Assembly (NCBI GenBank): GCA_036679605.1
Contig: JAZDCZ010000386.1
Location: 96,001 to 160,000, forward strand
Direction: 5' to 3'
Origin: Gemmatimonadota bacterium
GTDB lineage: Bacteria; Gemmatimonadota; Gemmatimonadetes; Gemmatimonadales; GWC2-71-9
Length of the DNA stretch: 64,000 bases
Positions 1 through 34,424 of this stretch are shown piece by piece. The translations under genes and the position numbers were made by a program. Under the pieces are notes generated by a model. That model was not told the origin of the DNA. It saw only the letters and a program-made list of their open reading frames with translations, and did no database searches. Each line of letters opens with the position of its first letter. Position 1 is the stretch's first letter.

Positions 1-870
1 GGCGAGAGCGTGGCGAGTGCCTATGCCTTGGAGGACGGTGACATAATGTCCCCGCTTATTCGCAACCTGGGCTCGATGCTGGTTCGAGGGGCCATGCCCA
101 TTGAGGTTCTCCGTCAGTATATGGCCAAGGCGACTAGCCCCGCTCGCGGGCGGGACGGCAACATCCACTTCAACGATCTCGAACTTGGATATCTGGGACA
201 GATCTCCCAGCTAGGTGACATGGTAGCAGTGATGGCGGGAGTGGCTCTGAGCTTCAAACTGCGGGGAGAGAGGCGGGTTGGCTTGGTGTACGTGGGTGAC
301 GGTGCTACCAGCACCGGTGCATTCCACGAAGGCTTGAATCTAGCCGCTGTCCAGCGGGCTCCGCTTGTGGTAATTGTCGAGAACAACGGGTACGCGTATT
401 CTACCCCTACCGTGAAACAGGCTGCTGTGGAACGTTTATCTACAAAGGCAAAGGCTTACGGGGTTGCGGCTGCTTCGGTAGATGGCAACGACGTGTTTGC
501 CGTGTATGAGGCTACAAAGAATGCGGTTCGGAACGCACGTGACGGTGGTGGAGTGACACTCATTGAGGTGGTAACCTATAGGCGGAAGGGGCACGCTCAG
601 CACGACAACCAGAGCTACCAACCGAAAGATGAGATAGCCTTGTGGGAGAGCCGGGATCCTATCGACCGTTACACTCGGCGTGTCCGTGATGAGGGCTGGC
701 TTTCACAGAGTGAGCTGAGGGAGGTCGAGGCAAGAGTGAGCACAGAACTCGATGCAGCCGTTGCGGAATGCGAGAACGATCAACTTCCCGCCGGCGATAC
801 TGCGCTTGCTAACGTGCTGGTCGATCCGGACTCTGCCTGCCGTCTTTGGTTTAGGGGGTTGGATGCCTGA
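1..870 (+). CDS. 2-oxoacid (pyruvate/branched-chain) dehydrogenase E1 alpha subunit, 5' partial
   Basis: ThDP motif GDGATSTG...ENN and YRRKGHAQHD loop; frame open from base 1; followed by E1 beta and E2. Confidence 0.9.
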   Translation, partial: GESVASAYALEDGDIMSPLIRNLGSMLVRGAMPIEVLRQYMAKATSPARGRDGNIHFNDLELGYLGQISQLGDMVAVMAGVALSFKLRGERRVGLVYVGDGATSTGAFHEGLNLAAVQRAPLVVIVENNGYAYSTPTVKQAAVERLSTKAKAYGVAAASVDGNDVFAVYEATKNAVRNARDGGGVTLIEVVTYRRKGHAQHDNQSYQPKDEIALWESRDPIDRYTRRVRDEGWLSQSELREVEARVSTELDAAVAECENDQLPAGDTALANVLVDPDSACRLWFRGLDA

Positions 871-1843
871 GATCACCTACCTAGAGGCCATACGTCAGGG
901 TTTGTCGGAGGAGATGCAACGCGACGAGAATGTGTTCATTATAGGTGAGGATGTGGGTGCCTACGGAGGTGCGTTCAAAGTAACCGATGGCTTGCTCGAC
1001 CGCTTTGGACCCAACCGTGTCATCGATACCCCGATTAGTGAAACGGCGATTGTGGGCGCCGCCGCCGGAGCTGCCCACATGGGCATGCGGCCGGTTGCAG
1101 AGATGCAGTTCATCGACTTCATCTCGTGCGCGTACGACATTCTCACAAACTATGTGGCAACTGCACGCTACCGCGCAGGGCTCTCAACTCCCATTGTGGT
1201 TCGGGGTCCATCGGGTGGATACGTCCGCGGTGGCCCTTTTCACTCGCAGAATCCGGAGGCTGCGTTTTTCCACACACCAGGGCTCAAGCTCGTCTGTCCG
1301 GCAACGGCGCGTGATGCCAAGGGCCTTATTAAATCGGCGATTCGGGACGACGATCCAGTCATCTACTTCGAGCACAAGTATCTCTATAGGCGAATCAAGG
1401 AGGACCTACCTGATGACGAGGAGATCATCACACCCATTGGAAAGGCACAGATCAGACGCAGCGGGAGCGATCTAACGATCATTACCTGGTCGGCCATGGT
1501 GTGGAAATCGTTGGAAGCCGCCGAACGGATCGAAGTGGAGGATGGAGCTTCGGTGGAGGTGATTGATCTGCGCACGCTCGTTCCCATGGATGACGAAACG
1601 TTGCTCGAGTCGGTCAGGCGGACGAACAAGGTACTCGTTGTGCACGAGGATACGCGCACCGGTGGTGTGGCAGGAGAGATCATGGCGCGTATCAACGAGG
1701 CAGCTTTCGAGTGGCTCGATGGACCGGTGATACGAGTGACGGCCCACGACACTCCAATTCCGTATGCGCCCTCGCTGGAGGATTTCGTGTTGCCGCAGAC
1801 CGATGATGTTGTGCGAGCGGCTAGGTGGCTTCTGGCCTACTGA
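863..1843 (+). CDS. 2-oxoacid dehydrogenase E1 beta subunit
   Basis: GEDVGAYGGAF, DTPISETAIVG, EMQFIDF, HSQ motifs; start moved to ATG 863 (MPEITYLEAI), overlapping the E1a stop. Confidence 0.93.
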   Translation: MPEITYLEAIRQGLSEEMQRDENVFIIGEDVGAYGGAFKVTDGLLDRFGPNRVIDTPISETAIVGAAAGAAHMGMRPVAEMQFIDFISCAYDILTNYVATARYRAGLSTPIVVRGPSGGYVRGGPFHSQNPEAAFFHTPGLKLVCPATARDAKGLIKSAIRDDDPVIYFEHKYLYRRIKEDLPDDEEIITPIGKAQIRRSGSDLTIITWSAMVWKSLEAAERIEVEDGASVEVIDLRTLVPMDDETLLESVRRTNKVLVVHEDTRTGGVAGEIMARINEAAFEWLDGPVIRVTAHDTPIPYAPSLEDFVLPQTDDVVRAARWLLAY

Positions 1844-2286
1844 CGGGCGGTGCGACGCCAGGGTATGGGACCAAAGACAACCGTCGGTACGGCTTCTGAG
1901 CGGCTGAGCCCGAGAATGTTACGCCGGACTGCAGACACAGAGTATGCGTTTCGCAACACGAAGCACCAGGCATGCTCCCCCCATACGCTTCGACGAAAGA
2001 CCGTGCGATTGCCGGTGCGTTGTATCGCAACGGAAGCAGCCCGCCGTATTTTCATAATTATTGCCTTCCGAGACAGCGAAGCAGGTGCTCTCGCCAAGAG
2101 CCGGAGCCTTGATTGCGTGAGGGACACTTCGTCGATCTGCCAACCCGGATTTGCGCACGCTTTACCGATCAGGCGCTCGCAGAATCGGGCGGTTGCGGGT
2201 ATCTTCAACTGTTCACAGTCTGGTGCGATGGTACAAATGATGTGGCACCATTTTTTGGTGACCGTTGCATGGACGTGGTGTTTCAT
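1837..2286 (-). CDS. IS200/IS605 TnpA (Y1 HUH)-fold protein lacking catalytic residues
   Basis: 149 aa with TnpA-like residue pattern (CHII; LIGKAC..GWQIDEV; LL..P..LS; W before the last strand), but SRLRLL where DHVHLL is expected and RRNI where xxYI is expected. Confidence 0.6.
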   Translation of the reverse strand: MKHHVHATVTKKWCHIICTIAPDCEQLKIPATARFCERLIGKACANPGWQIDEVSLTQSRLRLLARAPASLSRKAIIMKIRRAASVAIQRTGNRTVFRRSVWGEHAWCFVLRNAYSVSAVRRNILGLSRSEAVPTVVFGPIPWRRTARQ

Positions 2287-2392
2287 GCGGCAAAGATGTA
2301 TGCCGCAGTGCCACTAGGCATACCCAAATTTACGCAGCTAATGACACAATTTTTCCGTAAGCCGGGGCGACGGCACTTCAGGGAGACCGTGC

Positions 2393-3745
2393 ATGTCTAG
2401 GGTAGATGTGGTAATGCCACAAATGGGAGAGTCAATTGCCGAGGGCACTGTCTCACAGTGGCTCAAGAAGGTTGGCGATGAGGTCAAGCGTGATGAGGCC
2501 ATCCTAGAGATCTCGACGGACAAGGTTGACGCTGAGATTCCGTCTCCCGTAGGCGGCGTCCTGGCTGAGATAAAGGTTGAAGCAGGTGCGACCGTGGAAG
2601 TCCAAACGGTCATCGCCGTGATCGAGACCGAGAAGGGTGCGGCCGTTGCGTCCCCCACACTCGAGAAGTCCGCGGACGACTCTGTCGCAGTAACACCGGC
2701 ACCGGTGGCGGCAGCTCCGGGCGGTTTGGTAGACCCGACTCCAACGCCTGCCGTTGAGCCTCATACACCGGCCGGTGACGGTGGTAGTGAAACGGCCGAA
2801 GATCGACTGAGACGCAGGTCGACCCCGTTGGTGCGCAAGATCGCGGCCGAGCACCAGGTGGAGATTGAGACAATAGAGGGAACGGGCCACGGCGGCCGTG
2901 TGACAAAAAAGGACATCATGTTGTTCCTGGAGGGCCGCGCATCTGCAGTGCCGGCTGCTGTTGTCCAGAGTTCGCCGGGGCGTGCTGGGATACCGCGTGA
3001 AGATCGCGGAGAGATCGTGCACCCGACCGTAGAACCCTGGCCGGGCGACCGAGTTGAGCCGATGACCAGGATTCGGAAACTCACCGCCGATCACATGGTG
3101 TTGTCTCGTCGCGTATCGGCGCACGTGACCAGCTTCTATGAGGTCGATTTCTCGGCCATCGCCCAGATCAGGCAGGACAAGAAGGATGACTACTTGCAGC
3201 GTGGTGCCAGGCTCACGTTCTTGGCGTTCATTGTGAACGTTTTGTCGAGCAATCTTCGGAAACACGCGATCCTCAACGCCTCGGTCAGCGGCGACAATAT
3301 TATCTATCGGCAACCGATCAACATTGGAATCGCTGTGGCGCTTGACTGGGGTTTGATCGTTCCTGTTCTGAAGAACGCCGACGATCTGTCACTCATAGGG
3401 ATCGCCAAGCGAATGGCCGACCTGGGCGAGCGAGCGCGAAGCAAGCGTCTCAGCCCGGACGAGGTCCAGCAGGGAACGTTCACGATCACTAATCCGGGAG
3501 GATTCGGTTCGTATATCGGTGCTCCGATCATAAGCCAGCCACAGGTCGCGATCATGGGCGTCGGGGCGATAGAGAAGAGACCTAAGGTCATTACACTGGC
3601 TGACGGCCAAGATGTCATTGCCATTCGTACGATGGGAATGCTTTCGCTTTCCTACGATCACCGTGTGGTAGACGGGGCCGATGCCGACAGATTCATGGCG
3701 GATGTAAAGAGCGACCTCGAGCAGTTCACGGCTAGTGCGGTATAG
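2393..3745 (+). CDS. dihydrolipoamide acyltransferase E2
   Basis: Lipoyl STDKVDAEIPSP, subunit-binding domain TPLVRKIAAEH...GTGHGGRVTKKD, catalytic DHRVVDG. Confidence 0.93.
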   Translation: MSRVDVVMPQMGESIAEGTVSQWLKKVGDEVKRDEAILEISTDKVDAEIPSPVGGVLAEIKVEAGATVEVQTVIAVIETEKGAAVASPTLEKSADDSVAVTPAPVAAAPGGLVDPTPTPAVEPHTPAGDGGSETAEDRLRRRSTPLVRKIAAEHQVEIETIEGTGHGGRVTKKDIMLFLEGRASAVPAAVVQSSPGRAGIPREDRGEIVHPTVEPWPGDRVEPMTRIRKLTADHMVLSRRVSAHVTSFYEVDFSAIAQIRQDKKDDYLQRGARLTFLAFIVNVLSSNLRKHAILNASVSGDNIIYRQPINIGIAVALDWGLIVPVLKNADDLSLIGIAKRMADLGERARSKRLSPDEVQQGTFTITNPGGFGSYIGAPIISQPQVAIMGVGAIEKRPKVITLADGQDVIAIRTMGMLSLSYDHRVVDGADADRFMADVKSDLEQFTASAV

Positions 3746-3748
3746 GCC

Positions 3749-4024
3749 GTGGCGCGCCGTACGATCGACGTCAATGGTGAGCGCTGGGCTATCTATCCAT
3801 CCGGTCGCGTAACCGTATACAACCGAGACGAATTTGCCCTCATGTTTGAAAAGGGAACCGGGCCGGATAGAGTGTGTCGTGTAACGCGGTTCTCACCTCA
3901 GGGTATGCGCCGTCGTGATGCGGCCCTTTCGGAGCTGTCCGATTCGCAGCTACTGGACTTGTTTCGAACGTCGCAGATAGCTCGCACCAGTCCGGAGGCC
4001 GGCTACCGCCGCCGGACCAACTAG
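3749..4024 (+). CDS. small hypothetical protein
   Basis: 91-aa ORF exactly filling the gap between E2 and PHP (3 and 2 nt spacing). Confidence 0.7.
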   Translation: MARRTIDVNGERWAIYPSGRVTVYNRDEFALMFEKGTGPDRVCRVTRFSPQGMRRRDAALSELSDSQLLDLFRTSQIARTSPEAGYRRRTN

Positions 4025-4026
4025 CT

Positions 4027-4893
4027 GTGCCCAAAATAGATCTGCACCTTCATTCAACCGCTTCAGACGGGTCGTGTACGCCTGCCGAGGTGGTCCGACA
4101 GTCCATGGTGTGTGGCTTGACCGCAATCGCTCTTACCGATCACGACACGCTGGGTGGTGTGCCGGAAGCGGTTTCGGCCGCTAGGGACTGCGATCTGCGT
4201 GTCCTAGCCGGATGCGAGTTCAGTGCCTCCTCCACGTGGGGTGAGGTCCACATCCTGGCATATTTCCTCCCGCTCGACGACCCATCCCTGAATTCTTTTA
4301 TCACGTTGCAGCAGGATCGACGACTCGCGCGCGCGAAGTCCATGGTGGACCGGCTCAATCGGCTGGGAGTCGCTATTGGACTCGACGACGTTCTCGAGGT
4401 GGCAAAGGGGGGTGTGCTAGGACGCCCGCACGTGGCGCGCACTTTGGTGAAGCGCGGTGCGGTGAAGGATGTTCAGGCAGCGTTCCGCAGATACCTGGGT
4501 GCCGACCTGCCGGCCTACGTCCCCAAAGAGTTACCGACTCTGGCTGAGGTTGCCTCGGTGGTGAGACTTACGGGAGGTACTACGTCGGCCGCCCATCTGA
4601 GGGAGTTGGCCTTGGATCCAGATGTACTCGATGAGTTGGTTGATGCGGGAGTGGATGCAGTAGAGGTGATGCATCCCTCCCACCATGAGAGACAGTTCGC
4701 AGCGATCGAGGCGGCGGCGCGGCGGGTCGGGTTGCTGGCCACGGGAGGATCGGATTGGCACGGTGAGGAATCCGGCGGGCCGAGTCGAGCGGTCCCGGGA
4801 TCTCTTAACGTGCCGCCGGTCTGGCTGGGTCAGATAGAAGCGCTCCATCGCCAGCGATCCGTAATGGAACCAGCCGCAGAGGGGGGTCGTTAA
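4027..4893 (+). CDS. PHP-domain metal-dependent phosphoesterase (TrpH/YciV-like)
   Basis: HLHSTASDG, TDHDT, GRPHVA, GGSDWHG. Confidence 0.9.
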   Translation: MPKIDLHLHSTASDGSCTPAEVVRQSMVCGLTAIALTDHDTLGGVPEAVSAARDCDLRVLAGCEFSASSTWGEVHILAYFLPLDDPSLNSFITLQQDRRLARAKSMVDRLNRLGVAIGLDDVLEVAKGGVLGRPHVARTLVKRGAVKDVQAAFRRYLGADLPAYVPKELPTLAEVASVVRLTGGTTSAAHLRELALDPDVLDELVDAGVDAVEVMHPSHHERQFAAIEAAARRVGLLATGGSDWHGEESGGPSRAVPGSLNVPPVWLGQIEALHRQRSVMEPAAEGGR

Positions 4894-6705: not shown

Positions 6706-6727
6706 CGGAACTTCCGAACAAGTGCCG

Positions 6728-6757
6728 AATATAGACGGGCTGTCAAAGCCGCGTCAA
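6728..6757 (-). promoter_or_regulatory. putative sigma70 promoter for tRNA-Leu
   Basis: TTGACG-N18-TATATT on the minus strand. Confidence 0.5.
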
Positions 6758-6805: not shown

Positions 6806-7285
6806 GTGTCGCAGCAAACTAGACCGGAGAACTCGCGTGGCCGCGTAGTGGCCAGTAACCGGAAGGCCCGGCACGACTATCATATCGAGGAAACCTGGGA
6901 GGCTGGATTGATACTCACAGGATCCGAGATCAAGTCCGTCCGGGCTGGGAAGGTGAGTCTCAAGGGTGCCTACGGCATAATACGCCAAGGCCAGATCTGG
7001 TTGGAAGGTGTGAATATCGCTGCATATGAATCTGGTGGTTATACGAACCACGATCCGGTCCGATCCCGTAAGCTCCTGATGCACCGATCCGAAATCCGGC
7101 GACTCATTGGCTCGCTGGAGCGTCGAGGGCTCACCTTGATTCCCCTAGATATGCATCTCTCACATGGTTGGGCGAAGGTGACGTTGGGCCTTGGTCGAGG
7201 AAAAAAACTTCACGACAAGCGTGAGGATGTGAAGCGCCGCGACGCCGAGAGAGAAGCTGCGCGTGAAATGGGTCGCCGCCGATGA
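6806..7285 (+). CDS. smpB: SsrA-binding protein
   Basis: NRKARHDY, EAGLILTGSEIKSVR, RKLLMH, GKKLHDKRE. Confidence 0.97.
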   Translation: MSQQTRPENSRGRVVASNRKARHDYHIEETWEAGLILTGSEIKSVRAGKVSLKGAYGIIRQGQIWLEGVNIAAYESGGYTNHDPVRSRKLLMHRSEIRRLIGSLERRGLTLIPLDMHLSHGWAKVTLGLGRGKKLHDKREDVKRRDAEREAAREMGRRR

Positions 7286-33737: not shown

Positions 33738-34424
33738 ATGGACAGCCTTCGACTTTCCGAAACCCGAGTTGCAGACAGACCCCGCGAGCGGCTATTCACG
33801 CTCGGTGTGGCCTCGTTGACGACCACTGAACTCCTCGCCATTCTGATAAGTACGGGAACTGCGCGCCGCGACGCACTTGAGGTGGCAGGTGGACTCCTGC
33901 GGATTGGGACGGGCTCCCTGCGCGAACTGGCTCGCCGCCCGCCGGGAGAACTGGCCGGTGTGTCCGGGGTAGGTAAGGCCAAGGCCGCAAGAGTGGCCGC
34001 GGCCTTAGAACTGGCGCAGCGATTGGCAGGAGAGGGGCGGGAAGAGCCGTTTGGCATACGGAGTCCAGCTGATGTTCACCGCTGGTGCGGGCCGCGCATG
34101 CGTGACTTGGCGGTAGAGGAATTTCATCTGTTGGCGCTTGATACACAGAACAGGATCCGGCGCGATCTACTGATAACGCGGGGCATCCTCGACAGCTCGT
34201 TGGTTCATCCACGGGAGGTGTTTAGGGCAGCCATTGCGGAGGCTGCAGCCGGCGTCATCGTGGTGCATAACCACCCGAGCGGTAACCCCACGCCTTCGGC
34301 CGACGACCGAGCGGTAACCAGGCAGCTGAGCGACGCGGGGAAGCTACTCGACATTCCGCTCTACGATCACGTTGTGGTGGGTGGAGATAGATACTTCAGC
34401 TTTGCGGAGGCAGGTCTTTTGTGA
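33738..34424 (+). CDS. radC: RadC (JAB-domain) protein
   Basis: RPRERL, HhH GVGKAKA, HPREVF, HNHPSGNPTPS..D, DHVVVG. Confidence 0.93.
   Translation: MDSLRLSETRVADRPRERLFTLGVASLTTTELLAILISTGTARRDALEVAGGLLRIGTGSLRELARRPPGELAGVSGVGKAKAARVAAALELAQRLAGEGREEPFGIRSPADVHRWCGPRMRDLAVEEFHLLALDTQNRIRRDLLITRGILDSSLVHPREVFRAAIAEAAAGVIVVHNHPSGNPTPSADDRAVTRQLSDAGKLLDIPLYDHVVVGGDRYFSFAEAGLL

Follow-up and report, generated by a model that had tools for sequence, protein, structure and literature searches.

Between the E1 beta (E1b) and E2 genes of a 2-oxoacid dehydrogenase operon, the stretch of Gemmatimonadota DNA analysed here (64,000 nt, hereafter the window) carries an antisense ORF that was originally predicted to encode an IS200-type TnpA with its fold kept and its catalytic residues lost. 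The locus raises the question of whether a transposase that cannot cut has been retained by its host and, if so, for what use. The ORF, hereafter the dead TnpA gene, is uninterrupted, encodes 149 amino acids and lies on the minus strand at positions 1837..2286, the coordinates first given for it. Its convergent neighbour is E1b (863..1843, plus strand), preceded by E1 alpha (1..870, plus strand; 5′ end outside the window, label read from the sequence), and its divergent neighbour is E2 (2393..3745, plus strand), about 106 nt from the start of the gene. With E1b and E2 as immediate neighbours, the locus holds no tnpB, as had been noted. The stop codons of the gene and of E1b had also been said to overlap; the 3′ ends do so by 7 nt, but the two stop codons occupy separate positions (TAG of the dead TnpA gene at 1837-1839, minus strand; TGA of E1b at 1841-1843). 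Two alternative ORFs on the plus strand, 1850-2317 and 2113-2400, were rejected, having no Pfam match; in orthologs, moreover, the remaining five frames are interrupted.

On its own, the 149-aa protein matched the NCBIfam IS200 model (E=3.7e-4) and Pfam Y1_Tnp (PF01797; E=0.0039) below their cut-offs, its nearest Atlas clusters were Y1_Tnp (0.94), and a PDB search with the single sequence gave 0 matches. Forty-seven homologs were taken from a representative library and 46 were aligned with the query; 37 of these 46 family members matched Y1_Tnp at E<=0.1 (best 7.7e-9). Compared with structures, the family profile returned eight matches, all to transposases (best ISDra2, 5e-5), and the Atlas model of ortholog P0007 matched a Y1_Tnp cluster with TM 0.74/0.76 over 138 residues. 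The sub-cut-off profile matches, the family profile and the ortholog model agree on the Y1 transposase layout that had been read by eye, and the fold comparison with Y1_Tnp found its match through the latter two. In core order and predicted fold the family resembles the IS200/IS605 TnpA proteins (IS608, ISDra2; PF01797), from which it differs in that its active site is gone, flanking hairpins are not conserved and tnpB is missing. The absence of clear flanking hairpins had been predicted for this copy, and none is conserved across loci: hairpins with z<-2 were found upstream of 6/56 and downstream of 7/55 dead loci, versus downstream of 10/16 active relatives. Fused (longer) homologs did not occur among 8000 scored candidates, which is weak evidence, and PADLOC run on 5 proteins gave 0 matches.

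Scanning 301 genomes of the host family with the family profile gave bimodal scores: 55 genomes carry a single strong copy (E<1e-30), one carries a broken, truncated copy, and the remainder match weakly (21 weak matches lie outside those listed, and active sites were examined in 17). Two overlapping samples from other families, of 242 and 175 genomes, contained no strong match. Carriers span 20 genera, and all 56 loci are syntenic, the gene standing head-to-head with E2 in 51 and, in the five of genus g55, with a PHP-domain gene (4027..4893, plus strand, in the window); E1b lies downstream in 49/56. The proposed search for syntenic orthologs thus recovered single-copy orthologs at the E2 or PHP site throughout. 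The ORF is full length in 54/56 loci, one other being cut by a contig end; the copy in G180 (L061) has an internal deletion. The dN/dS ratio, also proposed as a check, was below 1 in 72/72 computable pairs, indicating purifying selection (range 0.03-0.60, Nei-Gojobori, from 75 same-genus pairs; 0.12 for the window's genome, G000, against G001; 0.05-0.11 in g55, from the 7 of 10 pairs that could be computed); many pairs approach saturation, and those of low divergence agree. Differences by codon position (0.27/0.20/0.51) show a third-position bias, and each of the other five frames is interrupted by stops in 29-54 of 54 orthologs. Single-copy syntenic orthologs, purifying selection, third-position bias and a conserved promoter (below) argue that the gene is, almost certainly, domesticated rather than decaying, as the original prediction had it.

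All 12 strongly supported splits of the E1b tree recur in the dead TnpA tree, and 10/14 do so conversely (46 genomes; 10 of 56 loci omitted), and tree distances correlate weakly with those of E1b (rho 0.17; 0.07 between genera). In nine of nine gene-less genomes, no more than 144 nt separate E1b from E2, and no remnant was seen. Eight of these nine form a separate clade (support 0.998) in the E1b+E2 tree, which covers 52/65 loci (13 dropped) and has a midpoint root and no outgroup, and the ninth, G009, is nested among carriers; this topology fits one gain with occasional loss. In G009 (L084) the lost gene has left a 136-nt spacer. By this sequence record a Y1 transposase gave rise to a host gene that is inherited vertically, single in copy, fixed in its locus and under purifying selection, unlike the TnpA of mobile IS200/IS605 elements.

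Alignment places the former HUH motif at R60-L61-R62 (2101..2109, minus strand) and the former Y---Q motif at N123-I-L-G-L127 (1906..1920, minus strand), where they had first been read. The accompanying claim that all catalytic residues are lost is right for the 1837-2286 copy but not for the family, since His2 is kept in 29/54 full orthologs (an alignment without G180, the deleted copy, and G289, at a contig end). His1 is retained in 2/54 and never together with His2, the catalytic Tyr in 2/54 and the Gln at +4 in 4/54; the full catalytic set occurs in 0/54. Both His, Tyr and Gln are present in 17/17 active relatives. A KGxS motif, which presumably binds the hairpin in Y1 enzymes, is likewise found in 17/17 active relatives and is absent from the dead family; because it is gone, the ancestral DNA contact has not been retained as such. 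The subclass 1.2 signature Y---Q--HH occurs in 14/17 of the nearest active relatives and QxxHH in 0/54 dead orthologs, and by sequence the ancestor looks like a subclass 1.2-like TnpA-Y1. As that subclass is described in the accessible part of PMC6006769, the dead family shares its low copy number and its want of typical IS200 ends; it differs in having no HUH, Tyr, Gln or HH tail.

Other residues have become fixed. C36 and E37 (2176..2181, minus strand) and W107 are invariant in 54/54 orthologs, position 36 being Leu in 17/17 active relatives; K28, I29, W49, R73, C108 and R121 are conserved in 47-52 of 54, and H15, C108, C44 and C14 in 51, 48, 42 and 32 of 54, respectively. The core holds 4.4 Cys on average, versus 1.1 in active relatives, and its mean net charge is +13, which makes nucleic-acid binding by a basic core plausible. 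The C-terminal tails vary among orthologs, whose lengths range from 124 to 178 aa.

The original prediction set the gene inside the dehydrogenase operon, and a functional tie to that operon did not survive comparison with g55, which keeps the dead TnpA gene with no E1b ortholog. The five g55 genomes (86-94% complete) contain E1b paralogs at 44-46% only, and E1, E2, orf91 and trxB are missing from both long g55 loci examined. Because g55 retains the gene under strong selection, the dehydrogenase link appears incidental, and the operon was probably a landing site only; as E1b and E2 are adjacent in all nine gene-less genomes, the insertion split an operon. From the profile-estimated start, the spacer to divergent E2 measures 86-119 nt (40 loci). 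Directly after E2 lies orf91 (3749-4024, plus strand, 91 aa), which is 67-81% conserved in four long loci and matched nothing in Pfam or NCBIfam; in most long loci trxB is the third gene after E2. In g55 loci L076 and L077 an 846-aa ORF takes the place of the dehydrogenase genes downstream, presumably a copper P-type ATPase by its look.

Upstream of the dead TnpA gene, a predicted -10 box (YANNNT, -12..-7 of the ATG; 2293..2298, minus strand) predicts a leaderless mRNA, and a second motif, with consensus TGCGNNNNTTYGGKTA, lies at -50..-35 (2321..2336, minus strand). Across the 56 loci, YANNNT stands at -11..-13 in 46, C at -1 in 52 and a Shine-Dalgarno-like word in 2; judged by these start regions, the transcript is probably leaderless. 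The 16-nt motif occurs at -48..-51 in 46/56 loci, centred near -42. It is oriented toward the dead TnpA gene in 41/56 loci versus toward E2 in 12/56, and orientation excludes it as an E2 promoter. It is no general feature of leaderless genes (0/207 leaderless starts), LexA-box scoring rejected it as a LexA box, and its presence in genomes without the gene makes it unlikely to be the gene's own operator.

The motif is common to other promoters. A strict pattern of motif plus -10 box gave 27 matches, versus 5 for a reversed control, in 61 genomes, some without the gene. Sixteen ORFs scanned behind motif sites comprise two yraN genes, one Mg_chelatase/ChlI ATPase gene, which we take to be comM, one HHH_3 protein gene, which we infer to be comEA-like, one N-methyl pilin gene heading a run that reaches pilM, one active Y1_Tnp gene, four four-helix-bundle genes and six with weak or no match. 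A genome scan added Uma2 and PDDEXK_3 genes and the radC of the window (PF04002 + UPF0758_N; 33738..34424, plus strand), which shares the motif, the -10 box and the leaderless start with the dead TnpA gene and belongs to the same predicted regulon; an Eco57I-type gene also stands behind the motif. We fitted a two-block promoter model on 25/30 yraN promoters, which is not fully independent because it was seeded with letters from the dead TnpA motif. Under this model 47/56 dead TnpA promoters exceeded the 95th and 39/56 the 99th background percentile (n=1061), and by genus median 18/20 genera were positive, kin genomes not being independent in such counts. radC was positive in 15/21 scored promoters (28 loci; control 5.5% of 858) and comM-type genes in 8/11 above the 95th percentile (26 loci; control ~5%), with 7/28 radC and 15/26 comM loci left unscored for want of a leaderless -10. 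The active Y1 relatives scored positive in 14/17 cases, a count inflated because the best of several offsets was taken; since they mostly score, the dead TnpA gene probably inherited its promoter and has kept it.

The motif is thus shared with genes of transformation, namely yraN, radC and comM-type, comEA-like and pilin genes. YraN and ComM are described as a helicase/nuclease pair acting in transformation (PMC13663708, in part), and RadC and ComM fall within competence regulons of other bacteria (PMC1635313, PMC12378983, in the parts available). As in the CRP-S/Sxy competence regulons, so far as the available part of PMC1635313 describes them, a common site precedes pilin, comEA-, comM- and radC-type genes, and the left half of the motif resembles the TGCG of CRP-S; in contrast to CRP-S/Sxy, the motif is asymmetric, no TfoX_N (Sxy) regulator was found in G000, and the motif was seen directly upstream of neither dprA (28 loci) nor comEC (29 and 26 loci). 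Both genes may lie inside operons. The comM of G000 itself has no motif. In that genome (6.7 Mb) the dead TnpA gene, radC, yraN and recA share contig C319, and matches on other contigs are less safe because contamination stands at 6.3%. The motif may also mark a broader stress or mobile-gene class rather than competence as such, since it precedes four-helix-bundle, Uma2, PDDEXK_3, Eco57I-type, multicopy and active Y1 genes.

An SOS-type control was considered separately. The direct repeat TTCG-N7-TTCGG precedes recA in 29/30 loci from three families (L102, L115-L143) and also precedes lexA (L103; G000 C332), and is a candidate LexA box for the order. Scored with this box, which was derived here from the recA and lexA upstream repeats, dead TnpA promoters reached 6.6 bits at best (median -1.0), versus 11.6-28 at recA sites. 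In the window, positions 6713-6730 score 16.4, about 75 nt upstream of an smpB-like ORF (6806-7285) on the opposite strand. Titles and abstract openings, with few subscription journals covered, contained neither a published Gemmatimonadota LexA box nor a description of a Gemmatimonadota competence regulon. In all 30 recA loci yraN lies directly upstream of recA, and GGGAGT-type low-complexity repeats flank yraN on both sides (L102; G000 C319:168450-169220). Two adjacent WYL-domain genes in G000 (C275:1861-3035; L144, L145), which we take to be PafBC-like, are a candidate activator.

A gene that is dead, kept in 20 genera and provided with an upstream signal shared with uptake genes is likely to encode a non-cutting DNA-binding helper of transformation. 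The specific form that we favour, a non-cutting single-stranded DNA (ssDNA) binder co-induced with DNA uptake, we put forward tentatively, at somewhat less than an even chance. On this proposal, a subclass 1.2-like Y1 gene would have inserted, together with its own promoter, head-to-head with E2 in the ancestor from which one sub-clade descends; His1, Tyr, Gln, KGxS, the HH tail and the flanking hairpins would then have been lost, and a basic, Cys/Trp-rich signature (K28-I29, R34-F35-C36-E37, R73, W107-C108, R121) would have been fixed. An activator or sigma factor would read the -50 motif before the leaderless start, as at yraN, radC and comM-, comEA- and pilin-like genes. The protein itself would attach to single strands that enter or are displaced, whether or not these are structured, and would hold or shield them during transformation-linked recombination while leaving them un-nicked. 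Against the proposal, most of the host family and all other families keep comEC, comM and dprA without the dead TnpA gene. G014, a carrier 96% complete, has no dprA match at E<=1e-30. The fullest version, in which a captured and disarmed, uptake-timed single-strand transposase came to serve a single lineage as ssDNA chaperone or gatekeeper in natural transformation, expressed from an undescribed Gemmatimonadales competence promoter, is appreciably less probable, and we regard it as rather unlikely.

Other uses would explain parts of the same record. The protein could damp transposition if, co-expressed with resident active Y1 enzymes, it poisoned mixed dimers or competed for hairpin ends. In IS608 a heterodimer of wild-type and H64A/Y127F subunits was totally inactive in cleavage (PMC3597680, as far as its available text goes), the family is without exactly those two parts, active Y1 genes have the motif in their promoters, and G000 contains intact Y1 genes; but the core is only 11-13% identical to the two aligned active Y1 proteins of G000 (family median 20%), KGxS is gone and the W107-C108 strand is remodelled. 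Weak Y1 matches, moreover, occur about equally in carriers (at least 17/56 genomes) and non-carriers (at least 67/245) among the best 13 candidates per genome, and we hold a damper to be unlikely. Slightly less credible is that C36-E37, C44, C108, C14 and H15 form a metal or redox site, making the protein a sensor or a different enzyme. Invariant C36 and E37, the Cys enrichment and trxB downstream of E2 would suit that idea, yet the active relatives have an invariant Leu in place of C36 and an Ala in place of C44, which suggests buried packing; in addition, C108 is Phe in 6 orthologs, C14 is Tyr or Phe in 22, and trxB is missing from both g55 loci examined.

The constant head-to-head spacing, the orientation of 51/56 loci toward E2 and 5/56 toward PHP, and the close E1b-E2 junction of the gene-less genomes could also speak for local regulation, of the kind that divergently transcribed regulators often exert, either on the divergent E2-orf91-PHP-trxB transcript or on the dehydrogenase operon. 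Against this, g55 without an E1b ortholog shows the strongest selection, the spacer holds no conserved hairpin, and its sole strongly conserved motif is the dead TnpA promoter, which is found also in gene-less genomes; the reading is at best about as doubtful as a redox site. A nucleic-acid role unrelated to DNA uptake, within another programme such as general stress or DNA damage, would fit the place of yraN before recA in 30/30 loci, the many small nucleases and unnamed genes behind the motif and the tandem WYL pair of G000. It seems quite improbable with no LexA-type box at the dead TnpA gene and with the motif standing also before pilin/pilM and comEA-like genes. Finally, a decaying insertion sequence or a spurious antisense ORF might be suspected from the sub-threshold Pfam score, the variable tails, the G180 deletion and the nested loss in G009, but 54/56 full-length ORFs, the third-position bias, the broken other frames and dN/dS below 1 in every computable pair leave that view almost no chance.

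A non-cutting ssDNA binder would extend what is described for Y1 relatives. The dead family resembles RAYT/TnpA-REP proteins in being a domesticated, single-copy and vertically inherited Y1 relative (PMC5581495, PMC8266576, in the parts available). According to the same sources RAYTs keep HUH and Tyr amid REPs, and the dead family has neither, so that the described Y1 domestications keep a catalytic site that this family has given up. HuH/Y-lacking proteins were filtered out as probably non-functional by Quentin et al. 2018 (PMC6006769, available part); a member of that kind under selection indicates that the Y1 fold has a use without cutting. TldR, in the available portion of 10.1101/2023.11.30.569447, is likewise an IS200/IS605 protein retained by its host after loss of catalysis; it derives from TnpB and is RNA-guided, whereas the dead family derives from TnpA. 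If the fullest version of the proposal is true, nuclease-dead TnpAs would recur as nucleic-acid-binding factors of their hosts and form, as a class, the TnpA counterpart of TldRs. Titles and abstract openings, from few subscription journals, gave no description of a nuclease-dead, selected TnpA, and in the part of the 2022 review PMC8987985 that was available neither TnpA nor RAYT occurs. The family is restricted to part of one bacterial family, represented mostly by metagenome-assembled genomes, and its use has only been deduced; the common promoter offers a concrete first test of it. As by-products, the analysis yields candidates for a competence regulon and for a LexA box in the phylum Gemmatimonadota.

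The same promoter signal accompanies further genes. Intact subclass 1.2-like Y1 genes with palindromic-repeat flanks and a competence-like promoter were found at L149, L062, L066 and L067 and on G000 C113 and C89, which suggests that they are single-strand elements timed to DNA uptake. A multicopy family of 85-140-aa genes with a hydrophobic C-terminus has each copy behind the motif (G000 C26, C113, C214, C357 (two) and C161 (frameshifted); G001 L107, L109 and L110), and the one member scanned matched no Pfam family over the cut-off. In G061, three sites of the motif with its -10 box (L160, L162 and L164) lie close to contig ends and have no clear ORF behind them; one of the three is followed by what by eye is a tRNA-like sequence.
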